A stretch of DNA of 64,000 nucleotides, from positions 260,678 through 324,677 of the forward strand of contig JBDTZG010000001.1 of NCBI GenBank assembly GCA_040005235.1. Reading direction: 5' to 3'. Under the pieces are notes generated by a model. The model was not told where the DNA came from, made no database searches, and was given only the letters and a program-made list of their open reading frames with translations. Made by a program: the position numbers and the translations under genes. Source of the DNA: Acidobacteriota bacterium. GTDB lineage: Bacteria > Acidobacteriota > Thermoanaerobaculia > Multivoradales > UBA5704. Positions 1,228 to 18,577 of this stretch are shown here, piece by piece (within the stretch, counting starts at the first letter, position 1; each line of letters begins with the position of its first letter).

Positions 1228-4200
1228 CTACTCAAAATACCCCGCCACATCCACGATCACATGCACCGTCCCCGATCCCAACACGAACGCCGAGGCCGCG
1301 TAGCTTCCGCTGCCGTCGGTCGCGAGTTGAACCAGCGCGTTGTTCGTGCGGGTCTGGCCGGCGCTGAAGTTCAGTGTCGCGACCCCCGGGGCGGGGAGGT
1401 CGCCGGGGTAGAGGGTGAGGAAGCCGAGTGAAGTCGGTGCCGTCACCGTGACGTTCGCCGCGATGGCGGTCGCGGTCGTCGGCACGCCGCAGAGTCCGTG
1501 GGCGGCTCGGATGCGGGGCACTCCTGAGGCGAGCGGTCCGGCTCCGTCGCTGCGACTGTCGTAGAGCCGGCAGGGGGTCACGGTGAAGTACTGGCCGAGG
1601 TTCGCGTTTTTGGCGGCGAAGACGTCGGATGCGCGGTTTCGGTCGTCGGCCACCAGGTCGCTCGACGTCGAGGCGAACACCACGACGCTGCCGTCGGCGC
1701 TGATCTGCGGGTTCGCGGAGGCCCCGCTCGGCCCGGGCGTCGGACCGGCGAACGGCCGGCTCACAAGCGCGTTCGTGGCGTGGAGGCGATCGAAGAGAAA
1801 GACGTTAGTCCGTGCCGGCGAACCGGCGGCGAGCGCCGCGCCGCTTGCGTAGGCGAAGAATCGGCCGTCGCGGCTGATGGACGGCGGGCTCGCCGCGTCG
1901 ATGCTGAACGCGAGCAGGGGATTGCCCACCGCGTGGCTGATGAGGGTGCTGGTTCCGGTCAGCCGATCGAACAGGAAAAGATCGGAGATGCCGTTGCCGT
2001 CGCTTTGCCCCGTCACCAGGTCGGTCGCCCGGCAGGAGTAGGCGACATAGCGTCCGTCACCGCTCGGCCGCGCCTCGTCGCAGGGGGCGTTGCCGGTGGT
2101 GGCGGGGGTTCCGGCTTTGCGGCTCACCAAGACGTTGACCGTCGTCGTCCGATCGAAGAGGAAGACGTCATCCCCGCCATTGCCTTCGACCTGGCTCGAA
2201 ACGACGTCGAACGCATCGCTGCGAAACGCGACCCATCTTCCGTCGGCGCTGATCTCCGGCGCATGCGAGGTTCCGACCACCGGGCCGTTCGGGGTGTCGA
2301 AGGAGCGGCTCGCCAAGTCGGCGACGCCGGTCTGGGCGTCGTACACGAAGACGTCCAAAAATCCCTGGTTGTCGAACTGCCCGGGAGAGACGTTCGAGCC
2401 GAGGCTTTCGAAGGCCAGATAGCGACCCGAGGCGTCGAGCGAGACGTGTCCGGACGGGGCGTTCGCCGCGGTGGTGGTGGAGCTGTTGTCGTGGCTTGCG
2501 AGGACCGTGGTTCCGGCGACTCGATCGAACAGGAAGACGTCCGGCCCGTTGTTGGTATCGATCTGCCCGGACACCAGGTTGATCGCGCCGCTCACGAACG
2601 CGAGGAATCGCCCATCGGCCGAGATCGCATGGGGCGCCGGGTCGTCGAACAACGCCTTGCCGGCGGGCGAGATGGCGATCCTCTGCACCGAAGCGGCGAC
2701 GCGGTCTTCGAGGTAGAGACCGACGGTGCCCGGCGGCAGAGGCGTGGCGACGAGGTCGGTCGCCGCGCTCCAGAACGCGAAATAACGGCCGTCCGCGCTC
2801 GCGATTCCGGCGTCTGAAAGATCGCTTCCTCCGGCGAGCGGAGCGCCCGAGGCATGGCTCACGATCGCGGACGTCGCCGCCGTCCGATCGCGTCGGTAGA
2901 CCTGGGTCGGGCCGGCGAATCCGATCTGCCCGGCGACCAGCCCGATCGCGCTGCTGGTGAAGGACACGTACCGACCGGTCGCGTCGAGCGCGGCGATCGG
3001 CCGGCCGAGCACGTAGCTCGCTCCGCCGTTGGTCGCCGAGGGACGGTCGGCCGCTCGGCGGGTGATCAGGTGGTTGGTCGTCTGATCCCACTCGAACAGC
3101 TCGGAGGTGCCGTTCGTATCGGTGATCCCCGCGACCAGATCGACTGCCGGGCTCGAGTAGACGACCGCCGTTCCGCTACTCGAGATCGCGAGAGCTCGTT
3201 CGCCGAACTGGGGGAGGCCGGCCCGGTTGGCCGCACCCGCGGCATGCGAGATGAGGGTCAAATCTCCCGTAAGGCGGTCGTACAGAAAGACGTCGGAACC
3301 GCCGCCGGTGTCGACCTGACCCGTCACCAGCCCGGGATCGGGACTCGCGAACGCCACCCATCGCCCGGCGCCGGCGCGAGAGATCGCCGGGTGTGTGGCG
3401 TTGGTCCCTCCCACGCTGAAATCGCCGCTCTTGTGGCTCGCGAGCGCTATGCCGCCGCTCTGTTCGGAAAAGAGGAAAACATCGCTCGTCGTCGGGTCGG
3501 GATCCCCCGCCCCCCCGATATGGTTTCTCCCGAAACCCGCAAAGGCGACCCAGAGAAAAGCTTTGTCGCCCGTCATCGAAAGCTCGGTGACGCCGCCATC
3601 GCCCGTGGTCGTCGGCGAGACGGCGGTGTGGCTCACCAAGATCGTCGAGCCGCTCGGCCGGCGCCAGAAGAAAGCGTCGGCCGCGCCGTTCGTGTCGGTT
3701 CCGCTCGCCACCAGATTGGTTGCAGTCGAAAGGAAGGCCACCGCATCGTCGGCGATCGCGAGCCGGCCGGTGGCGCTGCCGTTGCCCGCCGTCACCAACG
3801 ATCCGGCAGCGTGACTCACTAGCGCGGTCGTGTCGCTCGCCTGGTCCCAGTGGAAGACGTCGGCCTCGCCGTTGGTGTCGATCTGGCCGGCCACCAGGTC
3901 AGCGGCAAAGCTAAGGAAGGCGACCCTGCCAAACGAGTGCGCCGGAGAAAACGACGGCCCAGCGCCAGTCTTCGCAGGGTTGCCGGCGACGTGGCTGACG
4001 AGAGTGATGATTCCCGAATCTCGGCTCCAGAGGAAGACGTCGGTTTCACCGTTGGGATCAACCTGGCCGGCGACCATGTCGGTCGCTGCGCTGGCGAAAG
4101 CCACCCAGGCCCCATCGCCCAGGAGCGTCGCGGAGACGACTCCTCCGTTGCCGGTGGTGGCGGGGAAACCCGCGGCGTGGCTGACCAGGACGTTGGTGCC

Positions 4201-4665: not shown

Positions 4666-4761
4666 GGGGGGCTCGCGATCGGTAGAGGGACGGAGGATGG
4701 CCGGATCTTATCCGTCCGCGCTATCCTTCGGCTCGCCCCTTCCTTTCTTGGAGTCCTTGCG

Positions 4762-5802
4762 ATGGCTCAGATCAGCCGCTTTCTCTTCCTCCGCCACCTG
4801 CGCGCGGAGCCGAACCAGACGATCCTCCATTTCCATCGCGGCAAGCTTGCGCGGAGCGGGCCGGGCATCGCCTACTGGTTCCATCCGCTGTCGGCCGCTG
4901 TGCTCCAGGTGCCGGTGGAAGACATCGCGAGCACGTTCGTGCTGCGGGAGCGTTCGGCCGACCTCCAGGAAATCGCGGTGCAGATTACCCTCGCCTATCG
5001 CGTGGCGGACGCCGAAAAGGCCGGCCGGCGGATCAACTTCACCATCGGCCTCGGCACCGGCGCCTGGCTCGAACAGCCGCTCGAACGGCTCGCCGGCCTC
5101 TGGTCGCGCTGGGCGCAGGAGCCCGTGCGCGAAACCCTGATGCGCTTGGCCCTGGTCGACGCCGTGCGCACCGGAGCCGCGACGATCCGCGCGGCGCTCG
5201 ATCCGGCGCTCCGCGGCAACGTCGAAGCGGCGGAGATGGGGCTCGCGCTGGTGAGCGTCCAGGTCGACCAGGTGGTGCCGAACGCGGAGAACGAGAAAGC
5301 TCTCCAGACGCCGACCCGAGAGGCGATCCAGCAGAAAGCGGACGAGGCGACGTTCCAGCGTCGCGCGATGGCGGTTGAAAAAGAGCGGGCGATCAAGGAG
5401 AACGAGCTCGCGACCGAGGTCGAGCTGGCGCGGCGGCAGGAAGAGCTGATCCGCCAGGAGGCGTCGAACCGGCTGCTCTCGGTCCGCGAGGACGCCGGGG
5501 CGCAAAGGCTGGCGATCGAGGCGCAGGCCGAGCGCGAGGGGATCGCCGCCGAGGCGGCTTCGCGTGACGCGAAAACCCGCGCGGCGGGCGAAGCGGAAGC
5601 CAAGCGCCTGCTGCTCGACACCGATCTCGCCGCCGAAGCGCGACGGGCGGAAATCTGGTCCGTCGCGCCGCCCTCCGTGCTGCTCGGCTTCGCGCTTCAG
5701 CAGTTCGCGGGCAAGATCGGCTCGATCGAGCATCTGAACGTCACGCCCGATCTGCTCGGCGACCTGCTCCAGCGCTTCGCCCTGCGCCAGTCTGGGGAGT
5801 AA
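4762..5802 (+). CDS. SPFH/band 7 (flotillin-like) domain protein
   Basis: 346 aa; band-7 core (DLQEIAVQITLAYRV) and coiled-coil AIQQKADEATFQRRAMAVEKERAIKENEL; C-terminal IEHLNVTPDLL. Confidence 0.85.
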   Translation: MAQISRFLFLRHLRAEPNQTILHFHRGKLARSGPGIAYWFHPLSAAVLQVPVEDIASTFVLRERSADLQEIAVQITLAYRVADAEKAGRRINFTIGLGTGAWLEQPLERLAGLWSRWAQEPVRETLMRLALVDAVRTGAATIRAALDPALRGNVEAAEMGLALVSVQVDQVVPNAENEKALQTPTREAIQQKADEATFQRRAMAVEKERAIKENELATEVELARRQEELIRQEASNRLLSVREDAGAQRLAIEAQAEREGIAAEAASRDAKTRAAGEAEAKRLLLDTDLAAEARRAEIWSVAPPSVLLGFALQQFAGKIGSIEHLNVTPDLLGDLLQRFALRQSGE

Positions 5803-5808
5803 GCGCAC

Positions 5809-6732
5809 GTGGCGCACGCGCCGTCCCGCAGCCGGCCGCGGGTCGTGTTGGTGACCCGCAAGACCTCCCTCGAAGGTCTGCGCGAGTCGCGGGGCACGCT
5901 CGATCAGGTGCGCTTCTACCTCGCCTCGCGCGGCCAGGACATCGCCTGGCACCAAGAGGCGCACGACCGCTTCGTCGCCGCCTACGCGCAGGTCGAGGGC
6001 GCGATCCCCGCCGACCAGCGCCGGGTGCGGATCGACCGCGGCGACCTCGATCGGTTCCTGTTCGCGCCCGACGATCTGATCCTTGTGGTCGGCCAAGACG
6101 GCCTGGTCGCGAACGTCGCGAAATACCTCTCGGGCCAGAGGGTGATCGGCATCAACTCCGACCCCGAGCGCTTCGACGGCGTGCTCTGCCGCCACCCGCC
6201 CGGAATGGCGCCGATCCTGCTCCACTGGGCGGCGGGCGGCCCCGGCGGCCCCTTCCGGATCGAAACCCGCACGATGGCGCTCGCCGAGCGCGAAGACGGA
6301 CAGACGCTCTTGGCGCTCAACGAGGTGTTCGTCGGCCATCGCACCCACCAGTCGGCCCGCTACACGATCGAAGTCGGCGGGAAAAGCGAGCGCCACTCCT
6401 CCTCCGGAGTCCTTTGCGCCACCGGCACCGGAGCGACCGGCTGGGCGCGCTCGATCTGCGAGCAGCGGAAGGTGAAGAAAAAGCTGCCGCGCGCGACCGA
6501 CCCGCATCTCGCCTGGATGGTCCGCGAGCCGTTCCCCTCCGTCTCGACCGGCGTGGCGCTCGACTTCGGACTGCTCGCCTCGGGCGCCCGGCTGGTGCTC
6601 CATTCCGAAATGGCCGAAGGGGGGGCGATCTTCGCCGACGGCATCGAAAGCGACGCGCTCGAATTCTTGGGAGGGCAGAGCGTCACCGTACGCCGCGCGG
6701 ACGAAGCGCTCCATCTGGTGGTGCCGGCCTAA
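5809..6732 (+). CDS. NAD kinase-like (ATP-NAD kinase family) protein
   Basis: Motifs VVGQDG (GGDG variant), LALNE and SSGVLCATGTGATGW; starts 6 bp after the SPFH gene. Confidence 0.8.
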   Translation: MAHAPSRSRPRVVLVTRKTSLEGLRESRGTLDQVRFYLASRGQDIAWHQEAHDRFVAAYAQVEGAIPADQRRVRIDRGDLDRFLFAPDDLILVVGQDGLVANVAKYLSGQRVIGINSDPERFDGVLCRHPPGMAPILLHWAAGGPGGPFRIETRTMALAEREDGQTLLALNEVFVGHRTHQSARYTIEVGGKSERHSSSGVLCATGTGATGWARSICEQRKVKKKLPRATDPHLAWMVREPFPSVSTGVALDFGLLASGARLVLHSEMAEGGAIFADGIESDALEFLGGQSVTVRRADEALHLVVPA

Positions 6733-6790: not shown

Positions 6791-7006
6791 CTAGCAGGCC
6801 TGCCCAGAGACGCAGCCGGTCTGCGTCACGCAGGGGCTGACGACGGTGGCGCAGTTGACGTTGCTCTTGCAGGTGAAATACAGCGTGTTGCAGCCCGAGG
6901 TGATGCAGCCCGGGACGGTCGTGGCGCCGACGGCGCCTTCCAGCTCGCCTTCGAGCGCCCGAACCGTTTCCCGATTGAGATTGAGCTTCTTGATCGACTT
7001 GCGCAT
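6791..7006 (-). CDS. 71-aa lanthipeptide-like RiPP precursor
   Basis: MRKSIKKLNLNRETVRALEGELEGAVGA-TTVPGCITSGCNTLYFTCKSNVNCATVVSPCVTQTGCVSGQAC. KKLxLxxETVxxL leader, VGA cleavage-like site, core with 7 Cys and many Ser/Thr; RBS AGAAGGAG upstream; own terminator. Confidence 0.8.
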   Translation of the reverse strand: MRKSIKKLNLNRETVRALEGELEGAVGATTVPGCITSGCNTLYFTCKSNVNCATVVSPCVTQTGCVSGQAC

Positions 7007-7122
7007 GGGTGTCTCCTTCTTCCGAGAGAGCGCCGCCCACACCGCGGGCTCGATGCTCGCGGGCAGGCGTTGCGGTTCTGACGCAAGAGGCGGAAGACGA
7101 GGAGAAACGGGGCCAGGCGGTC

Positions 7123-7540
7123 CTACGACCGAAGCGGAGCCACCTGCATCGAGACCCTCTTCGTTCCGGCTCCCGTCGGCTGCTGGCCGACCTCCCGAAA
7201 GCCGAATTTCGCATGGAAGTGGTGAGACCCTTCGTTCGGCGGCTCGACGTCGATCTCGCACGTCACCCGCGGCACTCCGATCTCGCGCGCGTAGGCGAAC
7301 AGGTCGCATGCCGGGTAGTCTCGCGGCCCGCTCGCCCGCCTCCGATCTCGCGCGCGTAGGCGAACAGGTCGTCATACAGGAGAGAGCCGAACCCCTTGCC
7401 TTGAGCCGTGCCGGCGACCACCACGCGGTCGACGTAGAGAAAGCTCGCGTAGCGCTCGACATCGGGCTCAAGAAGTGCTCGGACTCCAAATTGAGCGCGA
7501 GGATCGTCTCGAAGTCGGCGGGGGTGGCGTTGCGGATCAT
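7123..7540 (-). pseudogene. Disrupted GNAT acetyltransferase
   Basis: Three pieces in shifting frames: MIRNATPADFETILALNLESEHFLSPM / ERYASFLYVDRVVVAGTAQGKGFGSLLYDDLFAYARE / IGVPRVTCEIDVEPPNEGSHHFHAKFGFREVG...*. An internal segment appears deleted, and there is a 32-bp duplication (7275-7306 = 7340-7371). Confidence 0.75.
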
Positions 7541-7793: not shown

Positions 7794-10334
7794 TTGCGTA
7801 AACCACCCTCAGACGACGCGCCTTCGCGGCGCGCGCCGAAGGAATCTTTCGGTGTCCCCCAGAACGCCGTCGTTTCTGCGGCGCCGGCCGCGGGCCCGGG
7901 AGCCGACCGGTTTGTCTGCATCCACGGGCACTTCTATCAACCCCCGCGGGAAAACCCCTGGCTCGAAGCGATCGAGCGGCAGCCTTCGGCGCGGCCGTAC
8001 CACGATTGGAACGAGCGGATCAGCGCGGAGTGCTATGCCGTCAACGCGCGGGCTCGGGTGTTGGACGAACGGGGACGGCTGGTGCGGCTGCTCGACAACT
8101 ACTCGCGGATCAGCTTCAACTTCGGCCCGACGCTGCTCGCCTGGATGGAGCGGGCCGATCCGGAGACCTATGCCGCGATCCTTGGCGCCGACCGGAAGAG
8201 CGTCGAGCGCTCGGGGCACGGCGCGGCGCTCGCGCAGGCGCATGGCCATTTGATCCTGCCGTTGGCGAACACGCGCGACAAGCGGACGCAGGTACTCTGG
8301 GGGATCGCTGACTTCCGTCATCGGTTCGGCCGCGCTCCCGAGGGGATGTGGCTCGCGGAGACCGCGGTCGACGTCGAGACGCTGGAGGTGCTCGCGGAGT
8401 GCGGCATCAAGTTCACGATCTTGGCTCCGCATCAGGCGGCCCGGGTGCGCCCGACGGGGGAGAAGACCTGGCGGGAGGTGCCGGGCGCCTCGATCGATCC
8501 CTCGCGCGCTTACTCTGCGGTGCTCCCTTCGGGGCGCGAGATCGCCTTGTTCTTCTACGACGGGCCGCTCTCCCGCTCGATCGCGTTCGAGGGGATGCTC
8601 CACAGCGGCGACCTGTTCGCCGAGCAGCTGGCCGGGGCGTTTCCCTTGCGGGGTGGGGCGAAGCTGGTCCATGTCGCGACCGACGGCGAGAGCTACGGCC
8701 ATCACCATCGGCACGGCGAGATGGCGCTCGCCGCCACTCTGTTGCGTCTGGAAGGGCGCGGTCTCGCGCAAGTGGTCCATTACGGCGAATTTCTGGCGCT
8801 TCATCCGTCGGAGTGGCAGGTCGAGATCGTACCGAACACCTCGTGGAGCTGCGCCCACGGCATCGAGCGGTGGCGCTCGGATTGCGGCTGCAACGCGGGG
8901 GGCGGCCCGGGATGGAACCAGACCTGGCGCGCGCCGCTGCGCCAGGCGCTCGACGACCTGCGCGACCGGTTGGCGGTGCGCTATGAGCGCGCCGCGGTCG
9001 ACCTGCTTTTCGACCCATGGCGGGCGCGCGACGCTTATATCGACGTCGTGCTCGACCGCTCGGAAACAACGCTCGACCAGTTCCTCGCGGCCCAAGCGCG
9101 CTGGCCGCTCAAAGCGGCCGAGCGGGTGCGGGTGAGAAAGCTCCTTGAGCTGGAGCGCCAGGCCATGGCGATGTTTACCAGCTGCGGCTGGTTCTTCAGC
9201 GACCTCGCCGGGATCGAGACGCGCCAGGTGTTGCTCCATGCCGGGCGGGCGATCGAGCTGGCGGAAGAGCTATTGGGCGAGCCGTTCGAGCCGGAGTTTT
9301 TAGCGGCCCTCGCCGCCGCGCGGAGCAACGACCCGAAGTTCGGCGATGGGCGGGCGATCTATCAGGCATCGGTCAAGCCGGCGCGCGTGGCGCTTTCGGC
9401 GGTCGCCGCCCACGATGCGATTGCCGCGCTGTTCTCTCGCCCCGCCGAGGCCGCCGAGCCGGGGTTGGAAGAAGGGCGGATCTACGCCTTTACCGTCGCC
9501 CGCCGGATCTTGAGGCGCGGCAACGGCGGGCCGCTCAAGCTGCTGCTCGCCGAGGTGGACGTCACCTCCGAAATCACCGGCGAAAGCGGCGGGTTCACCT
9601 ACGCGGCGTTCGCCTGGGGCGACCCGAACGTCCAAGTAGGGGTTCGGCCGCGCCTCGGACCGGCGCTCGAGCCGCAAGAGATCGCCGAGGTCGAAGAGGC
9701 GCTCCGGCTGGCCGATCCGGCGCAGGTGGTGCGCTGGCTCGACCGGCGGTTTCCGGTCCAGCACGCGCTCGACGCCCTGTTCGGCGACGACCGCGAGCGG
9801 CTGCTCGAGCGGATCCTGCGCGCGACGATCGAAGAGGTGGAAGGCCAGGGGCGCGAACAGTTCGAGCGCCACGCCCCGCTGATGCGCCGGCTGGCCGGAG
9901 TGGGTCTCGCCTTGCCCGGTGCGCTCCGGAGCGCGGCCGAGATGGCGATCTACGCCGAGTTGAAGCACGCCTTGCGCGATGCGGGGAGCGATCTCGCCGA
10001 GATCCGCCGTCGGCTGATCGAGGTACGCGATTGGGGTCTGGCGCTCGATCGCGAGGGGGTGCGCTACCTGCTGGAGCCGGCGATGACGGCGCAAGCCGAG
10101 CGGCTGCGTCGCGATCCACTCGACGCCGGGGCGGCGATCCGGCTGGAGGCGCTGCTCGACCTGGCGGGCGCGCTGCCGTTCGCGCTCGACCATCTGCCGA
10201 CCCAGGTCGCCCTCTATCGGCTGTTCGAGGAGCGCGCCGACCTGCTGGTCGAGCGGGCGGAGGAGGATCGGGAGGGGGCCGAGGCCCTCGCGCGGCTGGA
10301 GCGGTTGGCCGAGCGGCTGGCGATTCGACTTTGA
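7794..10334 (+). CDS. Glycoside hydrolase family 57 / DUF3536 protein (start uncertain)
   Basis: CIHGHFYQPPRENPW, SFNFGPTLL, PEGMWLAETAVD, ATDGESYGHH, TSWSCAHGIERW, MFTSCGWFF. Confidence 0.9.
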   Translation: MRKPPSDDAPSRRAPKESFGVPQNAVVSAAPAAGPGADRFVCIHGHFYQPPRENPWLEAIERQPSARPYHDWNERISAECYAVNARARVLDERGRLVRLLDNYSRISFNFGPTLLAWMERADPETYAAILGADRKSVERSGHGAALAQAHGHLILPLANTRDKRTQVLWGIADFRHRFGRAPEGMWLAETAVDVETLEVLAECGIKFTILAPHQAARVRPTGEKTWREVPGASIDPSRAYSAVLPSGREIALFFYDGPLSRSIAFEGMLHSGDLFAEQLAGAFPLRGGAKLVHVATDGESYGHHHRHGEMALAATLLRLEGRGLAQVVHYGEFLALHPSEWQVEIVPNTSWSCAHGIERWRSDCGCNAGGGPGWNQTWRAPLRQALDDLRDRLAVRYERAAVDLLFDPWRARDAYIDVVLDRSETTLDQFLAAQARWPLKAAERVRVRKLLELERQAMAMFTSCGWFFSDLAGIETRQVLLHAGRAIELAEELLGEPFEPEFLAALAAARSNDPKFGDGRAIYQASVKPARVALSAVAAHDAIAALFSRPAEAAEPGLEEGRIYAFTVARRILRRGNGGPLKLLLAEVDVTSEITGESGGFTYAAFAWGDPNVQVGVRPRLGPALEPQEIAEVEEALRLADPAQVVRWLDRRFPVQHALDALFGDDRERLLERILRATIEEVEGQGREQFERHAPLMRRLAGVGLALPGALRSAAEMAIYAELKHALRDAGSDLAEIRRRLIEVRDWGLALDREGVRYLLEPAMTAQAERLRRDPLDAGAAIRLEALLDLAGALPFALDHLPTQVALYRLFEERADLLVERAEEDREGAEALARLERLAERLAIRL

Positions 10335-10398
10335 TGCCGCGCCAAAAACCGGCGTCCGGCCAATCCGGCAGGTCGGAAAGCGCGCCAGAAAGACATCC

Positions 10399-10431
10399 AG
10401 AAACGAGAAGACCCCCCTCGGAAGGGGGGTC
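10399..10431 (-). terminator. Rho-independent terminator
   Basis: Hairpin gacccccct-cgga-aggggggtc (10410-10431), followed on the minus strand by TTCTCGTTTCT. Confidence 0.7.
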
Positions 10432-10596
10432 GATACGGGGTTGGTTCCGTCTCTCCGGTGGGATTTTTGGCTTCACCCCTGTAGACAAGGGGAATTCGGA
10501 GGACTGTGAGACGGGGTGAGATCGTGAGATCTCTTTTTTAGGTGGGATGGTAGTTGGTAGGTCGGTTCCTTCCCCGTGGGATATCTCGTTGACTGA
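10399..10596 (-). ncRNA. Putative sigma54-dependent small RNA (~190 nt) with repeated RUCYCAC motifs
   Basis: Lies between a sigma54 promoter (10608-10623) and a terminator (10399-10431); lower GC than the flanking genes; no credible ORF; six GTGRGAY copies on the + strand. Confidence 0.55.
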
Positions 10597-10607
10597 CTTT
10601 CACTAGA

Positions 10608-10623
10608 AGCAAGCGGTGTGCCA
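10608..10623 (-). promoter_or_regulatory. Sigma54 (-24/-12) promoter
   Basis: Minus strand TGGCACACCGCTTGCT matches TGGCAC-N5-TTGC(A/T). Confidence 0.75.
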
Positions 10624-10651
10624 GGTCGATTCGCCGCTTCCGAGGGTCTCT

Positions 10652-12355
10652 TTACTCCCGACGGGACAGCAGGAATCGGACCAGGAACCCTGCCGACAGC
10701 GCCCCGGGCAGCAGCGCCCATAGATTGCCCGCGGTGCCCAAAAGGGCCGCCGCGATGGCCAGGCTCCCGGCCAGAACGGCCCAACTGAGGCGCTGCATCA
10801 CTTTCTCCATCCGCACGGCGATGCGGCGCGCCTCCCGGCCGGGCTCGCTGCGGATCTGGAGGGCGCCCCTTTCCGCGCGCGCCAGGAAGGCATCGAGCCG
10901 GCGCGGCAGACCGAACGCCGACCGTGCGCCGGCCCAGACCTCGGCAAGTTGGGCGGCAAAATCGCGCGATATCTCTTCTTTGGCGATCCGCTCGGCGAAC
11001 GGCAGCGCCTCGGCCCAGGGGTCGAAATCGGGATCTAGACCGGTGGCGAGCCCTGCCAGCAGCCCCACCGCGCGCGACACGAACAACAGCTCCACCTGCA
11101 CCTGAAACGGCATTTCGTACAGTAGGTCGCGGTACTTCCGCAGAAAATACCGAGCTTCGGACATGGCGACGTCGCGCAGCTTGCCGACGCTCACGCCCCA
11201 GAACCGGGCGAACAGCTCGGCGTGGACCTCCTCCAATCGGTCGAGGTCGGCGTCTGGCAGCAGCACGCCCGCCGCGGCGTAGGACTGGACCAGTCGCGCG
11301 GCGTCCCGCGTGCCCAGGGCGATCGCGTATTCGCGGAGCGCGCCGCGCAGGTGGGACGGGACGGTCGCCATCATGCCGAAGTCGATGTAGATGATCCTGA
11401 ACGGCCGTCCCGTGCCGGTCTCCGGCGGCGGATCGTCATCGTCGTCTAAAGGCCGGACGAACAGATTGCCCGGGTGGGGGTCAGCGTGGACGAACGACAG
11501 CTCGAAGATCTGGCGCATGGTCGAGCGGAACAGCCGGCGCGCGACTGCGGCCGGATCGATCCCGGCCTCGATCAGCCCGGCGCGGTCATTCACCTTGAGT
11601 GCGGTGACGTTCTCGGCCGCGAGCACCCGGCGGGACGACGCTTCGCGAAAGATTCGCGGCGCGCCAATCCCGGGATCGGCGGCGAACAGCTCGGCGAAGC
11701 GTTCCGCGTTGTCCGCCTCCTTCACGAGGTCGAGTTCCGCGCGCGTGGTGGTCGAAATCTCCTCGGCGAGCCGTTCGAGGTCGACCCGGCGGCGGATCTT
11801 CCGGGAGGCCCGGAGCAGGCGGATCGCAAGCGCCGCCGCCGCGAGATCCGTCTCGACCAGGATCTCGATCCCAGGACGGAGCACCTTGACCACCGCGGCC
11901 CGGCCGTCCAAGAGGGTCGCCGGATGGACCTGAGCAAGCGACGCGGCGCCGAGGACTTGCGGCGAGACCTCGGAAAACGGCGAGCGGCCGGGAAACTCTT
12001 CCTCGATCCGCGCCTGGATGGCGGCGAACGGGGCTGGAGGCACCTCGTCCTGGAGCCCGGCCAGCTCCGCGGCGATCTCCGCGGGGAGGATGTCCACCCG
12101 GGTGCTCAGGAATTGGCCGATCTTGATCAGCACCCCGCCCATCTCGGCCGCGAGCCCGCGATACCTCCGGGCGATCGCCAGCCAGCGCTCGGCGGGAGAG
12201 CGGCGCAAGGGGGCGAGCGGGGGAAACGCCAAAATCACGTCCCACCAGAACGCATGGACGAACGTCCGCAGCACGAACCGGCGCAACTTTCGATACCGGC
12301 GCCGATCGCGGGCCGGCGGGGGAGAGGGCGAGGGATCTGAAATTGTCGGGGTCAA
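10652..12355 (-). CDS. AarF/ABC1/UbiB family atypical kinase
   Basis: GGVLIKIGQFLSTRVDILP, LQDEVPP, AASLAQVH, VVKVLRPG, HADPHPGN, IDFGM; C-terminal TM segments. Confidence 0.92.
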   Translation of the reverse strand: MTPTISDPSPSPPPARDRRRYRKLRRFVLRTFVHAFWWDVILAFPPLAPLRRSPAERWLAIARRYRGLAAEMGGVLIKIGQFLSTRVDILPAEIAAELAGLQDEVPPAPFAAIQARIEEEFPGRSPFSEVSPQVLGAASLAQVHPATLLDGRAAVVKVLRPGIEILVETDLAAAALAIRLLRASRKIRRRVDLERLAEEISTTTRAELDLVKEADNAERFAELFAADPGIGAPRIFREASSRRVLAAENVTALKVNDRAGLIEAGIDPAAVARRLFRSTMRQIFELSFVHADPHPGNLFVRPLDDDDDPPPETGTGRPFRIIYIDFGMMATVPSHLRGALREYAIALGTRDAARLVQSYAAAGVLLPDADLDRLEEVHAELFARFWGVSVGKLRDVAMSEARYFLRKYRDLLYEMPFQVQVELLFVSRAVGLLAGLATGLDPDFDPWAEALPFAERIAKEEISRDFAAQLAEVWAGARSAFGLPRRLDAFLARAERGALQIRSEPGREARRIAVRMEKVMQRLSWAVLAGSLAIAAALLGTAGNLWALLPGALSAGFLVRFLLSRRE

Positions 12356-12395
12356 GGGCTTAAGGCTCGCTACCGTTGTGGCAGGATTGTCGCCG

Positions 12396-13250
12396 ATGTT
12401 CGCTCCGCCAACGACCGCCGCAGGCCCTCGGGGTGACGCGCCGTCCTCTCGAGATGACGGGCTCGTCCTCCGCTCGCTCGATACGCCGGAAGATTTTCAC
12501 GCCTGTGTCGAGCTGCAACGCGCGACTTGGGGGCTGCATTTCAGCGACTTGGTTCCGGCGAGCCTGCTCAAGGTGAGCCAGAAGGTGGGAGGGCTCGCCA
12601 TAGGAGCCTTCGATCCGTCCGGGGCGATGCTCGGTTTCCTGTTCGGCCTCTCCGGCGTGGTCGGCGGCCGGCCGGCGCACTGGTCGCACATGCTGGCGGT
12701 CGTTCCCGCCGCCCGCGACCGGGGTCTCGGAGTTCGGCTCAAGCGCCACCAGCGCGAAGTCCTGCTCGAACAGGGGGTCGAGGTCGTCCGCTGGACCTTC
12801 GATCCGCTCGAGGCGAGAAACGCCCACCTGAACCTCGACCGCCTGGGCGCGGGCGTCGAAAGCTACGTCGAAGAGATGTACGCGGGCGAAGAAGGCTCCG
12901 ACCTCGCCGAGGGGATCGGCACCGACCGCTTCATCGTCCGCTGGGACCTCGCCTCGAAACGTGCCGAAGAGGCGCTCGCGGGCCGGCTGCCGAAAGACCC
13001 GGAGCGCTACGCGGACTCAGCCGTCGTCTCACCGGAGAACGGGATGGACGATCCGCTCCCCGAAGCGCTCCATGTCCGGATTGAAGTTCCGCGCTCAATC
13101 CAGGATCTCAAAGCCGCCAACCTCGACCGCGCCGCCGCCTTCCGGACCTCCACCCGCCGGGCCTTCGAGCACTACCTCGCGGTGGGCTATCGGGCGGACA
13201 CGCTGCTCGCCGAAGGGGATCGGCGATTTTATGGATTGGTGCGGACGTAA
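12396..13250 (+). CDS. GNAT acyltransferase (probable D-amino acid N-succinyltransferase type)
   Basis: HWSHMLAV...RDRGLGVRLK...WTFDPLEARNAHLN...LGA; directly upstream of OSBS/NSAR. ATG 12396 preferred to 12018, which overlaps the aarF gene. Confidence 0.8.
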   Translation: MFAPPTTAAGPRGDAPSSRDDGLVLRSLDTPEDFHACVELQRATWGLHFSDLVPASLLKVSQKVGGLAIGAFDPSGAMLGFLFGLSGVVGGRPAHWSHMLAVVPAARDRGLGVRLKRHQREVLLEQGVEVVRWTFDPLEARNAHLNLDRLGAGVESYVEEMYAGEEGSDLAEGIGTDRFIVRWDLASKRAEEALAGRLPKDPERYADSAVVSPENGMDDPLPEALHVRIEVPRSIQDLKAANLDRAAAFRTSTRRAFEHYLAVGYRADTLLAEGDRRFYGLVRT

Positions 13251-14395: not shown

Positions 14396-14410
14396 ATGGG
14401 GGAGAGGCGA

Positions 14411-14436
14411 CGTGGGGCGAGGCATGCCTCGCCCCC
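14411..14436. repeat. GTRGGGGCG-type REP-like palindrome
   Basis: cgtggggcgaggcatgcctcgcccc between convergent genes. Confidence 0.6.
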
Positions 14437-14449
14437 GGTCTTGCCGACC

Positions 14450-17179
14450 CTAGAAGTTGTAACGGAAGCCGAGCCGGAACTGGCGCGGCGCGTTGTAGGT
14501 GAGAGGGCTGTTGAAGTTCGAGCCGTCGCGGGTTTCGACCGTGACCGCCCGCCCCTGGTTGGTCGCGTTGAACACGTCCAGGATGATCCCCAGCCGGTCG
14601 CCGCCGATCTTCGGCTGCCACTCGGCGCGAAGGTCCACTTCGTTGCGCGCGGGCAGCCGGCGGCTGCCGCGGCGTTCGCCGTAGTAGCGGAACGCCCCTT
14701 GCTCGAAGTCGAAGCACTCGCCGTCGACCAGCAGGCAGTTGCTGCGCAGGGTGTAGGCCGTTCCTGTGAGGAAGGTGTAGTTGCCCGACAGCGACAGGTT
14801 CAGCTTCGGGATCATGTAGGTCCCTTGGATCTTCACCTGGTGCGTGTTGTCGTTGGTCAAGGCGCCATCGGCGTTGACCAGCGAGTTCGGCGTGTCGAGG
14901 AAGGCTCCCGGTCCGCCATTGCCGCCGCCGGTGCTCGAGAAGCTGACGTTGTCGATCGTTCCCCGCGATTTCGAGTAGACGTAGGAGGCGAGCAGCTGCC
15001 AGTTGTCGCGCAGCCGCCGGGTGAGGGTGACGGTCGCGGCCTTGTAAGTGCGCTTGAGGCCCTTGGGGTTGGTAATCAGGAGGACGTCGTCGGCCGAGTT
15101 CAGGTAGTTGTAGAGCGTCACTTGCTGGCCGGTGCTCACGCGGTCGCCGGTCGCCGGATCGCGCACCCCGACGAAGCCGGTCACCGGCACGAAGACGCCG
15201 TCGCGGCTGACCGTTTCGATGAAGTCCTTGTTCTCCCGGTAGACCAGCGAGGTCGAGAGGGTGAGCCCGGGAGTGAGCTCGCGGTCGTAGCCGATCAGGT
15301 ACTGGTCGAGGTAGGGGTGCTTCAAGTCCTTGTCGATCGCGTATCGGCCACCCGCCCCTTCGACGACCAGATCGGTAAAGCCACTTGGGAAGATCCGCCT
15401 TTGGTCGATGCCGTGGAACGCGTCGGGATCGACCCAGTAGAAGTAGGTGCCGAACAGCGCCTCGTAATAGCGGCCGTAGTGCGCTTTGATCAGGTTCTTG
15501 CCCGAGCCGGTGACGTCCCAGGCGATGCCGATCCGCGGGGCGATCGGGTTGGTCGAATAGACGTTGCCGTTGGTGACGTCGCCGCGGTTCAGGTCGATCC
15601 GGACGCCGGGGTTGATCGTCAGGTTCGAGGTGATCCGCCAGGTGTCCTGGGCATAGGCGGAAACGCGCTTGTTGGTCGCGTGGACATCGTAGTCGCCGCC
15701 GAAATAGCCAAGGGTGTACGGGACGTACTCGTCCGAGCCGGTCCCCGGATCGGGCGCCGTGCCGTAGTTGTCGTAGAACCAGGCTCCCGTAGTGTAGCCG
15801 TAGCGGCTGCGCACCGTCGAGCGCTCGATCTCCATGCCGAACTTGAAGTCGTGATCGCCCTTCAAGAAATCGGCCGCGTGGTGGCTGACCGAGGCGTTCG
15901 CCTGCTGGCGGTCGCGATCGGCCTTGTAGTAGTAGTAAGAGTTGTCGGAGAAATTGGTGCCGTCGTAGCGGCCGGGGATGTTGTATCCCTCGTTCGGATC
16001 GAGGTAGTAGTAGCCGGTAAAGCCGCCGTAGGCGAAATTCCAGATGGTGTCGGACGAAGTCACCTTGTGCGCCGAGAAGTTCCAAACGATCTCCGGCGCG
16101 TCTTCGGTCACCGTCGCTTCAAGCGGCGTCTGCGCGTCGCCGCCGCGGCCGGTGACGTCGAAGCGATCCCACTCGCTCCAGCCGTCGACGCTAAATGACT
16201 CGCTCGGCGCCCACGAGAGCTTGCCGAACACCCTGGGGTCGCGCTCGGTGCGGATCGGTCCGCCGTCCGACGTGTCGTCCGCGACGTACTGGCCGGAGAG
16301 GAAATACCAGAGCCGGTCCTTGGTGATCGGGCCGCCCCACTGGACGTTCGTGTCGTACGACTTGTCGGTCGTCGGAGTGAGCCCGGGGACGTCCGAGTTG
16401 TTGCCGGTGAGCGCGTCGTTCGTGAAGTAGCTCTCGACGCTTCCTTTGATCCGGTTGCCGCCGCTCTTGGTGATGCTGTTGAACACGACCCCGGTAAAGC
16501 CGCCGTATTCGGCCGGCGCACCCAGGCCGACCAGCTGGGCCTCCTCGACGATGTTGAAGTTGACGAACGCCCAGGCGGTGCCCCCTTCGGGGTCCGAGAC
16601 GTCGACGCCGTCGAGCTGGTAGGCATTGGCCGAGGAGCCCCCGCCGCCGAACGCGGAGTCGTTGTTGATCCCGGGCGCCAGGTTGATCACGTCGACCTGA
16701 AAGCGGCTCGCCGGAATGTTTTCAAGGTAAGTGGTCGGCAGGTTGGTGCTGGTGCCGGAGCTTTGGACGTCGATCGTCGGCGCTTCGCCCACGACCACGA
16801 GGGTCTCTTCGAGAGCTTTGATCCCGAGCTTGATCGGCAGCTCCGTCGAGGAGCCGAGCGACAGGGTCACCCCTTCGCGCCGGACGCTCTGGAAGCCTTC
16901 GAGCGAAGCGTTGATGGTGTAGACGCCCGGTGCGATCTCGGGGAAGCGGAAGCGGCCGTCGGAATCGGTGATGGCGGTGCGGGCGCCGCCGATCAACGCG
17001 GGGCTGGAGATTTCGACCGTCACGCCGGGCAGGGCCTCGCCGTCGTCTCCCGCCACGCGGCCGTTGAGCGCGCTGGTGGTTTTGCTCTGAGCCCACAGAT
17101 TGCCCGAGGCGCCCGCGATGAGCAGCAGAGCGGCTGCGGTTCGGGCCAATGTTTTTCGGTGCCGCGACAACATCGACAT
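14450..17179 (-). CDS. TonB-dependent receptor with N-terminal carboxypeptidase-regulatory-like domain (Oar-like)
   Basis: Signal peptide, GEALPGVTV...TDSDGRFRF, GAPAEYGGFTG..N.ITKSGGN, YAQDTW, PRIGIAWD; terminal PRQFRLGFRYNF. Confidence 0.92.
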   Translation of the reverse strand: MSMLSRHRKTLARTAAALLLIAGASGNLWAQSKTTSALNGRVAGDDGEALPGVTVEISSPALIGGARTAITDSDGRFRFPEIAPGVYTINASLEGFQSVRREGVTLSLGSSTELPIKLGIKALEETLVVVGEAPTIDVQSSGTSTNLPTTYLENIPASRFQVDVINLAPGINNDSAFGGGGSSANAYQLDGVDVSDPEGGTAWAFVNFNIVEEAQLVGLGAPAEYGGFTGVVFNSITKSGGNRIKGSVESYFTNDALTGNNSDVPGLTPTTDKSYDTNVQWGGPITKDRLWYFLSGQYVADDTSDGGPIRTERDPRVFGKLSWAPSESFSVDGWSEWDRFDVTGRGGDAQTPLEATVTEDAPEIVWNFSAHKVTSSDTIWNFAYGGFTGYYYLDPNEGYNIPGRYDGTNFSDNSYYYYKADRDRQQANASVSHHAADFLKGDHDFKFGMEIERSTVRSRYGYTTGAWFYDNYGTAPDPGTGSDEYVPYTLGYFGGDYDVHATNKRVSAYAQDTWRITSNLTINPGVRIDLNRGDVTNGNVYSTNPIAPRIGIAWDVTGSGKNLIKAHYGRYYEALFGTYFYWVDPDAFHGIDQRRIFPSGFTDLVVEGAGGRYAIDKDLKHPYLDQYLIGYDRELTPGLTLSTSLVYRENKDFIETVSRDGVFVPVTGFVGVRDPATGDRVSTGQQVTLYNYLNSADDVLLITNPKGLKRTYKAATVTLTRRLRDNWQLLASYVYSKSRGTIDNVSFSSTGGGNGGPGAFLDTPNSLVNADGALTNDNTHQVKIQGTYMIPKLNLSLSGNYTFLTGTAYTLRSNCLLVDGECFDFEQGAFRYYGERRGSRRLPARNEVDLRAEWQPKIGGDRLGIILDVFNATNQGRAVTVETRDGSNFNSPLTYNAPRQFRLGFRYNF

Positions 17180-17350: not shown

Positions 17351-18577
17351 TCAATCCTTATACGGGTCGAATTCGTCCGCCCCTGCCATCGCCACGATCA
17401 GCGGCCGCAGCGTCGCCTGAACCTCGATCGTCAAGCCTTGGGCCGCCAGCACGTCGGGCAGGCGGCGGTAGGCGTGGGGCGATTCGTCGAGACCGCCGCC
17501 GCGCAGGATCACGCCTTTTTCTTCCAGCCACTGCGCCATCATCTGGGGAGTGACCAGCCCGGCGCGGATCAGCTCGCCGGTCTTGCGGTTTCGTTTCCCC
17601 GCGGCCTGGGTGCGCGACATCACGCGGCCGGCGCCATGGACGGTTGAGTAGAGCGACTGTTCCTGGAGTGCGCGCACTTGGGGATCGTCGCTGGTCCGTC
17701 CGACCAAGATCACCGAGTCGTCGCCCATGCTGCCGCCGACGAAGCCGCGCTGGCCCGGAAACGCCGGGGTCGCCCCTTTGCGCACGACGATCCGCTCCTC
17801 GCCGTCGTGGGTTTCGCGCCAGGCGAAATTGTGGTGGTTGTGGACCAGGTCGGTCTCTGTCCCGCCGAGGATCGACACGGTTTTCCGCGCCACCCATTCG
17901 CGGCCGGCGTAAGCGTAGCGACCGGCCAGCTCCATCAGGTGGTAATAGGCGTCGCCCGCGGGGGAGTCGAGATCGAACAGCACCTCGGTCTCCGGCACCC
18001 GGGTGCCCCAAGCCTCTCCCGCGCCGATCGCCAAAAACCCGGAGGCGACGGTATGACCGAAGCCGCGCGAGCCGAAATGGACGCCGACCCAAAGGAAACC
18101 GTCGTCGTCCACCAGCACGTCCACATAGTGGTTGCCGCTGCCGACCGTGCCGAGCTGGGCGCGCGCCTTCTCTTTGAGGTTGCTGCGATGGTGCGCGGGA
18201 ATCCCCTCCCACGCCGGATCTTCGAACAGCGGATGGCCGACCGGCGCGTCGTCCGAGTGGTTCTTGCGGCCGACGCCGAACGAGATCTCGGCCGCGATCT
18301 CGTCGGCGAAGCGGGTGAGGTCGCGCCGCTCGAACCGCTCGGCGAGGAGATCGGTCCGGATCGCGCAGTTGCCGCAGGCGATGTCGAACCCGACACCCAC
18401 CACCGAGACCCGGTTCTTATACGCCGCGACGCCGCCGATCGGCATTACGTAGCCGAGGTGGCCGTCGGCCATCAGGGCGACCCGCTCGGCATGGACGGCG
18501 ACATCGCGCAACTGATCCAGGGTCTTCTCTTCATGGACGCCGAACACGGCGCCGATTTTCGGGTTCACCGCCTTCAT
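17351..18577 (-). CDS. rtcB: RtcB family RNA ligase
   Basis: DGHLGY, VGFDIACG, GTVGSGNHY, HFGSRG, HNHHN, RKGATPA, STVHGAGR. Confidence 0.92.
   Translation of the reverse strand: MKAVNPKIGAVFGVHEEKTLDQLRDVAVHAERVALMADGHLGYVMPIGGVAAYKNRVSVVGVGFDIACGNCAIRTDLLAERFERRDLTRFADEIAAEISFGVGRKNHSDDAPVGHPLFEDPAWEGIPAHHRSNLKEKARAQLGTVGSGNHYVDVLVDDDGFLWVGVHFGSRGFGHTVASGFLAIGAGEAWGTRVPETEVLFDLDSPAGDAYYHLMELAGRYAYAGREWVARKTVSILGGTETDLVHNHHNFAWRETHDGEERIVVRKGATPAFPGQRGFVGGSMGDDSVILVGRTSDDPQVRALQEQSLYSTVHGAGRVMSRTQAAGKRNRKTGELIRAGLVTPQMMAQWLEEKGVILRGGGLDESPHAYRRLPDVLAAQGLTIEVQATLRPLIVAMAGADEFDPYKD

Follow-up and report, generated by a model that had tools for sequence, protein, structure and literature searches.

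A 64,000-nucleotide (nt) stretch of the genome of an uncultured member of the Acidobacteriota (assembly GCA_040005235.1, contig JBDTZG010000001.1, positions 260,678 to 324,677 of the forward strand; henceforth the window, position 1 being its first letter) contains, on its minus strand, a genuine non-coding RNA gene, about 195 nt long and predicted to be transcribed on its own. As stated in a preliminary description made from the sequence alone, the gene lies in the gap between two convergent genes; one of these codes for a GH57 protein with a DUF3536 domain and the other for an ABC1/UbiB-type (AarF) kinase. It combines a sigma-54 promoter, an intrinsic terminator and a fold supported by covariation, and homologs are found across the order to which the source organism belongs. 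As judged from the alignments, the feature conserved throughout the order is a set of four CC-N2-CC sites at fixed places in the junctions of the fold, and not the RUCYCAC heptamer on which the preliminary description had centered. We tentatively favor the reading that the gene product is an Hfq-assisted regulatory RNA that acts in trans by base-pairing, and weigh it below against three other explanations.

The element is headed by TGGCACACCGCTTGCT, which reads TGGCAC-N5-TTGCT and constitutes an exact match to the sigma-54 consensus TGGCAC-N5-TTGCW; the preliminary description had reported a near-consensus -24/-12 promoter here. This is the sole exact match in the window (0.04 expected; at least one in 4 of 100 shuffles), the pattern has 13 matches genome-wide as against 2 for the reversed control pattern, and the element lies 28 nt past the stop codon of the kinase gene. 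Its GGCAC and TTGC blocks are invariant in all 8 copies from genus g1, which includes the window. A more relaxed form, NGGCAY-N5-YTGCW, is situated directly upstream of 87 of the 92 distinct copies from the family in the Genome Taxonomy Database (GTDB), the remaining five having a near-variant element or being cut by a contig end, and order-wide 108 of 113 copies show GG[CT]A[CT]-N5-NTGC, whose GG is in most cases 29-33 nt ahead of the model start. The source genome encodes RpoN (Sigma54_DBD, 221 bits) and shows 25 Sigma54_activat matches, of which 19 score above 130 bits, pointing to about 19 strong enhancer-binding activator genes. Because the promoter is of the sigma-54 type, expression of the RNA would need such an activator. 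No activator gene adjoins the RNA gene in the manner of crcZ or qrr1, its flanks being ABC1 and GH57 here and mutY, RimK-like or S49 peptidase genes elsewhere. A search for co-regulated genes with the exact type-A promoter word was uninformative, since in each of 5 genomes the word has a single occurrence, that at the RNA. As a separate observation, a GGAA(T) box precedes the -24 GG by 2-24 nt in 47 of 108 copies from several families, and direct repeats are found there at some loci, L074 having three copies of CTCAGGAACGG and L071 two of CAGGAATGCGGA. The box may represent an activator or accessory-factor site placed unusually near a sigma-54 promoter.

The transcription start was placed near 10597, about 12 nt downstream of the GC of the -12 element. 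At the other end, the terminator stem is a perfect 9-bp inverted repeat (I3; 10410-10418 and 10423-10431, 100% complementary), 3' of which the RNA strand continues as the interrupted U tail UCUUCUCGUUUC. The stem is kept in all 8 copies from genus g1, while its loop varies, and in a crude scan 81 of 112 copies of the family had a terminator-like hairpin followed by a U tail, many of these hairpins having 12-bp GC stems. The RNA strand from 10597 to 10401 is devoid of ATG, and the only minus-strand open reading frames (ORFs) to touch it are 10473-10784, which starts upstream of the promoter, and 9595-10488, which passes through the terminator and is antisense to the GH57 gene. Further, single-nucleotide insertions and deletions are scattered along the element among the 8 copies from genus g1. 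In light of these features the element is non-coding, and a protein-coding small ORF, which the preliminary description had named as an outcome that would undo its proposal, was rejected. Its remaining structural claims about this region, namely roughly 190 nt without a credible ORF that end in a GC hairpin and pyrimidine tail, agree with what we find.

A DNA search of 41 relatives located the stretch in all 7 other genomes of genus g1 and gave a weak match in one genome from another genus. In the alignment of the eight genomes, identity begins at TGGCAC and ceases after the terminator tail, with both flanks diverging; among these copies it amounts to 80-97%. A covariance model built from 9 sequences recovered the RNA from 90 of the 92 genomes in the GTDB family, representing all 11 genera, and a second model built from 70 copies recovered it in 110 of 151 sampled genomes of the order, representing 53 of 63 genera. 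The source organisms are uncultured and known from metagenome-assembled genomes, related genomes are non-independent samples, and covariance-model E-values are rough; the order sample includes one unpublished genome (G216), on which nothing rests. Broken down by family, the order-wide counts are 21/21 in f1, 6/6 in f2, 7/8 in f3, 8/8 in f4, 18/22 in f5, 1/1 in f6, 5/21 in f7, 1/21 in f8, 21/21 in f9, 10/10 in f10, 10/10 in f11 and 1/1 in f12. A class-level sample of 151 genomes gave 14 matches, all in families of this order, and the covariance model found the RNA in none of the 114 class genomes from the families outside the order (f13-f22). The whole window gave no match in a search of Rfam at gathering scores, an E-value search of 10300-10720 gave four weak matches (E 0.86-6.5), all far under gathering scores, and a search with 20 diverse family members gave three weak, unrelated ones. 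As no Rfam 15 family matches, assignment to a known RNA family was rejected, in keeping with the original notion of an unannotated small RNA.

Copy number differs between lineages. Genus g1 has a single copy, whereas most other genera of the family possess 2-3 tandem copies about 250-300 nt apart; the matches per genome range from 1 to 6 in the family, and outside family f1 most genomes gave one match. The tandem copies are each headed by a sigma-54 promoter of their own and mostly followed by a terminator-like hairpin, and two sequence subtypes can be recognized among the copies. Three-copy tandem arrays were observed in genus g7, namely in G022 (contigs C5 and C25), G013 (C3:6341538-6342229) and at locus L056. 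The six matches of G022 are divided between its two contigs with identical scores, and may reflect either a duplicated contig or a real second array.

The fold was tested on 113 copies aligned to the second covariance model, which itself encoded 8 bp of helix P1, 6 bp of P2 and 4 bp of P4. The closing helix P1 (12 bp), taken together with the hairpins P2 (6 bp) and P4 (5 bp), is 93.6% paired as against 54-72% after a shift of the partners by 1-3 columns; changes on both sides are seen in 19 of the 23 pairs, and none of 500 shuffles reached any of five measures. P1 is 90.7% paired with 11 of its 12 pairs co-varying, P2 is 97.6% paired with compensatory changes at all 6 pairs, and P4 is 94.8% paired and nearly invariant, its four C and four G columns being 94-100% conserved. 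Because a model-based alignment leans towards its model, 70 family copies were also aligned with MAFFT, blind to structure, and counted again; here pairing is 93.5% as against 41-66% when slid, and two-sided changes occur in 12 pairs, a result matched by none of 500 shuffles. Hence, covariation among related genomes, one of the checks proposed for the element at the outset, is evident in both P1 and P2.

In the window, P1 corresponds to inverted repeat I1 (10435-10449 and 10563-10577, 73% complementary). The genus g1 versions of this helix carry A.A mismatches, and that of G020 forms 12 uninterrupted pairs, 10 of them Watson-Crick and 2 G-U. The loop of P2 reads UCAC in the window and has other letters in the 7 other genus copies, with UUCG or CUCG in five. 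The core architecture and its length of about 160 nt are conserved order-wide. The three junctions average 31, 24 and 25 nt and consist of 9-15% G, 37-42% C and 27-40% A. The comparative data support a fold of P1, P2 and P4 in which these long, G-poor stretches remain single-stranded. A fourth helix, P3 (CCGUCUC at 10514-10508 with GAGACGG at 10453-10447), appeared in the single-sequence fold, in the RNAalifold prediction for the genus and as inverted repeat I6. It was not adopted because it is only 59.1% paired family-wide and changes in its 5' strand are uncompensated within the genus.

The preliminary description had proposed six RUCYCAC repeats as the motif of a possible protein sponge, two of them lying in a longer repeat. 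The six heptamers are present exactly where it placed them, with RTCYCAC on the minus strand at 10458, 10506, 10516, 10524, 10542 and 10576. Although the window total of 21 is not above chance (24.4 expected), 6 of these 21 fall within 125 nt of one strand, where about 0.02 would be expected from the rate over the whole window. Nor are the six independent of one another, because those at 10516 and 10524 form one 8-nt tandem duplication (D5). As a functional unit they are not supported by the comparative evidence: the 113 family RNAs have a mean of 0.49 copies, at least three occur in 1 of 113, that of this window, the copy at 10524-10530 is present only in the source genome and absent from the other seven genus copies, and that at 10506 is kept in only 4 of 9 aligned copies (8 genus genomes and G020). 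Thus, of the conservation anticipated in relatives, the promoter half stands (8/8 in the genus and 108/113 over the family) and the RUCYCAC half does not. The expectation that the heptamers are single-stranded likewise divides: that at 10524 forms the 5' arm and loop of P2, that at 10516 its 3' arm, and that at 10576 extends into P1, whereas those at 10542-10548 and 10458-10464 are in junctions and contain CC-N2-CC sites 2 and 4. The longer repeat (AUCCCAC, a purine run and GGAACC) exists as sequence (D1, D3), but the same segments are the arms of I1. It is explained by P1, because its two GGAACC blocks are the paired strands of the lower part of that helix, reading GGUUCC and GGGGCC in G020.

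In the four CC-N2-CC sites, the flanking C's are 91-100% conserved except for C75 in site 1 and the first (C85) and second (C60/U39) positions of site 3, the two middle positions vary, and four A-rich columns precede site 4. Matches to CCNRCC number 3.3 per RNA, 3.0 of them in the junctions, as against 1.05 in shuffles, and at least three copies are found in 85 of the 113 RNAs.

In the reading that we place first, a sigma-54 activator, switched on so as to couple its input to some signal, would drive production of the RNA, which would end at the intrinsic terminator and fold into P1, P2 and P4. These helices would hold the three C/A-rich junctions open and present the four CC-N2-CC sites; the RNA would then act in trans in association with Hfq, with its exposed C-rich sites pairing to G-rich stretches of target mRNAs and with redundant contact sites and extra gene copies setting the dose, as in LhrC. 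Action in trans is suggested by the convergent orientation of the next gene in genus g1, which leaves nothing downstream to regulate. Base-pairing was placed first on account of the prior for promoter-to-terminator small RNAs (sRNAs), the co-occurrence with Hfq and the precedent of LhrC. As for Hfq, it is encoded in the source genome (61.9 bits) and was found in 129 of 151 order genomes, and in genus g18 both Hfq and the RNA are missing from all 19 genomes (e.g. G031 and G108), which are 97-99% complete and in many cases assembled in 1-4 contigs. This joint absence amounts to a single event in one lineage and carries no statistical weight. In addition to the canonical Hfq, the source genome has a weaker Hfq/Sm-like match (C66:104872-105027, 22.6 bits, in a 127-aa frame), and many order genomes have two PF17209 matches.

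Several observations weigh against Hfq-assisted base-pairing. The Hfq link rests on the one lineage; family f7 has Hfq in 21/21 genomes and the RNA in 5/21, and three incomplete genomes (G146, G163 and G174) have the RNA and no Hfq match. There is no contiguous invariant seed order-wide, the flanking C's being fixed and the middle positions free, which makes for a poor fit to a shared mRNA target. In a target search confined to the source genome, with crude GC3-based gene calls (5457 ORFs), RNAduplex energies at the 5380 crude start regions were no better than those of shuffled segments, the sole exception being the junction between P1 and P2 (J1/2), with a slight edge (-31.6 as against -27.3 to -29.0 in 5 shuffles), and 6-mer complements of the CC-N2-CC sites were not enriched near predicted starts (about 0.9-1.2). 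In favor of base-pairing, site 3 of this genome resembles the anti-Shine-Dalgarno sequence, and the complement of its UCCUCC is enriched 2.6-fold around predicted start codons because that complement is the Shine-Dalgarno sequence itself. As a general rule for the CC-N2-CC sites, an anti-Shine-Dalgarno reading was rejected, since their complements are not enriched at starts. The top target candidate is a G-rich element before a BNR/Sortilin-like gene (C63 of the source genome, about 3615-3639; locus L162) that is complementary to both CC-N2-CC sites of J1/2 in blocks of 6 and 8 nt, with a duplex energy of -31.6 kcal/mol in the scan and -32.7 in the comparison of relatives (L163, L165). Of the four genus genomes examined, three have the element, namely the source genome, G003 and G002, with the coding part beginning further downstream in the latter two, and it is missing in G001; we regard this gene as a lead only.

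The RNA-library evidence speaks for transcription of the gene, but consists of contigs alone, from relatives and with neither strand or end information nor a DNA control. Twenty-four sequencing runs showed small word shares, and four RNA libraries from four studies were aligned, yielding one contig each. These soil contigs jointly cover parts of 10434-10625, and uncovered parts of the stretch carry no weight as evidence. Each differs from the window by 1-4 letters, and the P2 loop has the UUCG of relatives in X1, X2 and X4 and another variant in X6; hence, they stem from related organisms. Contigs X1 and X2, which are wholly contained in the RNA body, the latter ending 2 nt from the predicted start, give a weak hint of a discrete transcript, while X4 runs over the promoter to 10625 and X6 continues for 255 unlike nt. 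Overall, these libraries show transcription only weakly.

The arrangement of the conserved positions raises the alternative that the CC-N2-CC sites titrate an RNA-binding protein, be it a novel one, Hfq or a second Hfq-like protein, with sigma-54 induction and tandem copies setting the titrating dose as in CrcZ/CrcY. We place such a protein decoy or sponge second and consider it rather unlikely on balance. Four sites at fixed places, whose flanking C's are conserved and whose middle positions are free, resemble the recognition of CC pairs, and CCNRCC is threefold more frequent than in shuffles, with most RNAs having at least three copies. The complements of the sites are unenriched at start regions and the duplex energies show no excess over shuffles, so that fixed CC pairs, free middles and a dearth of complementary start sites fit protein recognition better than Watson-Crick pairing. 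The 2-3 tandem copies of many genomes and the six matches of G022 would be in line with a need for dose, and CrcZ and CrcY are, according to an excerpt of PMC5113210, RpoN-dependent antagonists of Hfq/Crc. Against this, four sites are few for a sponge, and no candidate protein gene is linked to the RNA, whose neighbors are mutY and RimK-like or ABC1 and GH57 genes. To our knowledge, no bacterial RNA-binding protein has specificity for CC-N2-CC, and base-pairing sRNAs are far commoner than sponges. A CsrA-type sponge is not supported by the source genome, which is 100% complete and gave no match to CsrA (PF02599). Of the novel sponge-type sRNA that was then proposed, the sRNA with its sigma-54 promoter remains and RUCYCAC as the motif does not. 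The broader form of the decoy explanation, in which an order-wide sigma-54-dependent RNA would titrate a novel, possibly divergent Hfq-like protein with tandem arrays setting its dose, strikes us as similarly doubtful.

A different possibility emerges from the gene neighborhoods. Flanking ABC1 and GH57 genes are a peculiarity of genus g1 (12 of 88 loci, duplicates included, all 12 from g1 genomes), and in 30 of 43 non-redundant loci a mutY gene (HhH-GPD and NUDIX_4 domains) is situated downstream on the same strand, 50-188 nt past the model end. Ancestrally, the RNA or array appears to have had a divergent RimK-like ATP-grasp gene on one side and mutY on the other, and the genus g1 copy appears to have moved to the ABC1/GH57 gap, which would make the RNA gene of the window a single-copy, relocated representative. 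The RNA and its terminator could accordingly be a cis-acting leader or attenuator, riboswitch-like or protein-dependent, that works as a conditional switch into the downstream gene, mostly mutY, with the window copy as a relocated orphan. The three-way junction with conserved junction nucleotides and a terminator directly after it are compatible with such a role, as is the extension of contig X6 for 255 nt past the RNA body. However, a convergent gene follows the RNA in 8/8 genomes of genus g1 and yet the copies retain 80-97% identity, and each tandem copy has its own promoter and mostly its own terminator-like hairpin. Moreover, junctions of 24-31 nt are long for an aptamer, the terminators are strong, with 12-bp GC stems and U tails in many copies, and no conserved anti-terminator was seen, though no systematic search was aimed at one. 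We therefore hold a cis-acting leader to be very improbable.

The order-wide constancy of architecture and length, the near-invariant nucleotides in the junctions and P4, and the single match in most genomes outside family f1 could also be accounted for by a structural role, with the RNA forming part of a stable ribonucleoprotein or scaffold, or with the junction C's engaged in tertiary contacts. This too is improbable in our estimation: dependence on sigma-54 implies conditional and not housekeeping expression, the RNA was not found in 19/19 near-complete genomes of g18 nor in most of f7, and genomes differ in copy number, with 1 to 6 matches each. The G-rich segments are, moreover, all used in P1, P2 and P4, and so the C's are left with no intramolecular partner.

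Table 1. Features of the RNA gene and its surroundings (window coordinates unless a locus is given)
Feature	Position	Strand	Remarks
Sigma-54 -24/-12 element TGGCACACCGCTTGCT	10608-10623	minus	exact consensus match
Predicted primary transcript, about 197 nt	10401-10597	minus	start predicted from -12 element, end in U-rich tail
P1, 5' strand ACGGGGAAGGAACC	10564-10577	minus	inverted repeat I1, covariation
P1, 3' strand GGAACCAACCCCGU	10435-10448	minus	inverted repeat I1, covariation
P2 hairpin, GAGAUC, 4-nt loop, GAUCUC	10518-10533	minus	covariation
P4 hairpin, CCCC, loop, GGGG	10476-10492	minus	nearly invariant
CC-N2-CC site 1, CCUACC	10556-10561	minus	J1/2; C97 C75 N N C94 C97
CC-N2-CC site 2, CCCACC	10541-10546	minus	C99 C93 N N C97 C99
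YC-N2-CC site 3, UCCUCC	10498-10503	minus	J2/4; C85 C60/U39 N N C91 C98
CC-N2-CC site 4, CCCACC	10457-10462	minus	J4/1, after A-run; C100 C97 A78 A88 C99 C94
Intrinsic terminator	10401-10431	minus	9-bp GC stem, UUCC loop, U-rich tail
ABC1/UbiB-type kinase gene	10652-12355	minus	Pfam
GH57+DUF3536 gene	7794-10334	plus	Pfam; convergent to RNA gene
GGAA(T) box, window	about 10626-10650
GGAA(T) box, further examples	L043, L071, L074, L059, L107, L121, L123, L126
RimK-like/mutY context, examples	loci L037-L116, e.g. L037:1736-2815, L039:2-697
Contig X1, 152 nt	10435-10586		wholly in RNA body
Contig X2, 156 nt	10440-10595		wholly in RNA body
Contig X4	10460-10625		19 further unlike letters; spans promoter
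Contig X6	10434-10569		255 further unlike letters

Two other aspects of the window were noted. An RtcB RNA ligase gene (17351-18577, minus strand) is located about 7 kb from the RNA gene, and the rtcBA operon of E. coli is sigma-54- and RtcR-dependent; no link between RtcB and the RNA was seen, the RNA occupying a different position in other genera. Long ORFs without a Pfam match are present at 4708-6714, 6791-7540 and 12360-12827 on the minus strand and at 14396-16198 and 12018-13250 on the plus strand, and, the genome being 66% GC, some of these are probably shadow frames of opposite-strand genes.

Acidobacteriota are among the most abundant soil bacteria, and the matches listed in a full-text literature search included no characterized sRNA or sigma-54-dependent RNA from this phylum. 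An order-wide RNA family with a defined promoter type, fold, copy-number variation and sharp motif therefore offers an entry to post-transcriptional regulation in the phylum, and a clean test case for whether repeated C-rich sites serve as redundant seeds or as a protein decoy. If the latter were true, the RNA would stand for a novel code by which a protein recognizes RNA, and for a new switch acting globally after transcription, in a major but little-studied soil phylum. The covariance model can be used at once for genome annotation and for counting transcripts in soil metatranscriptomes.

Comparisons with characterized systems show likenesses in the sigma-54 input (CrcZ/CrcY, Qrr, GlmY) and in the redundant C-rich sites (LhrC and the UCCC-motif sRNAs). 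The RNA is akin to CrcZ/CrcY of Pseudomonas in its RpoN-type promoter, paralogous copies, short repeated single-stranded motif and Hfq-encoding host. The repeated Hfq/Crc-binding motif of CrcZ is A-rich, whereas here it is the C-rich CC-N2-CC, with short A-runs of which only the one before site 4 is conserved. It further differs in its phylum and in having no activator gene beside it, while crcZ is just downstream of cbrB, as stated in part of PMC5113210. The CrcZ model of Rfam gave no match at its gathering score in the window, at E<=10 in 10300-10720 or at E<=1 in the 20 family members.

The Qrr sRNAs are about 100 nt long, compared to about 190 nt here, and depend on LuxO and Hfq. Those of Vibrio resemble the present RNA in having a sigma-54 promoter, several paralogs, a small size with a terminator and an Hfq-encoding host, as far as described in portions of PMC10162802; the present RNA differs in having no long invariant single-stranded seed, in copies that are tandem and not dispersed, and in the lack of an Rfam match. 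With CsrB/RsmY/RsmZ, which have several copies per genome and many GGA motifs in hairpin loops, it shares the principle of a small RNA that is variable apart from one short, recurring motif. It is set apart from them by the lack of CsrA in the source genome and of an Rfam match; GGA occurs three times in the window RNA, twice in the strands of P1 and never in a hairpin loop.

The likeness to LhrC of Listeria and to other UCCC-motif sRNAs (RsaE, RNAIII) lies in a G-poor, multicopy RNA with redundant, exposed C-rich sites. According to excerpts of PMC4132741, LhrC has five copies, is G-poor, is controlled by LisRK and pairs, through three redundant UCCC/CU-rich sites, with G-rich sequence that precedes a start codon. 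Here the promoter is of the sigma-54 type in place of two-component control by LisRK, the complements of the conserved sites are unenriched at starts, and UCCC, which the window RNA has within three AUCCCAC copies, is not conserved in the family. GlmY of Enterobacteriaceae, described in parts of PMC3045617 and PMC4152352 as a sigma-54/GlrR-dependent sRNA that acts as a protein decoy, provides a parallel for the promoter type and would provide one for the proposed decoy action, though it has a different architecture, comes from a different phylum and shows no sequence or structure match in Rfam to the present RNA. Given the above comparisons, we file this RNA as a regulatory small RNA under sigma-54 control that belongs to none of the CrcZ/CrcY, Qrr, GlmY and LhrC families.

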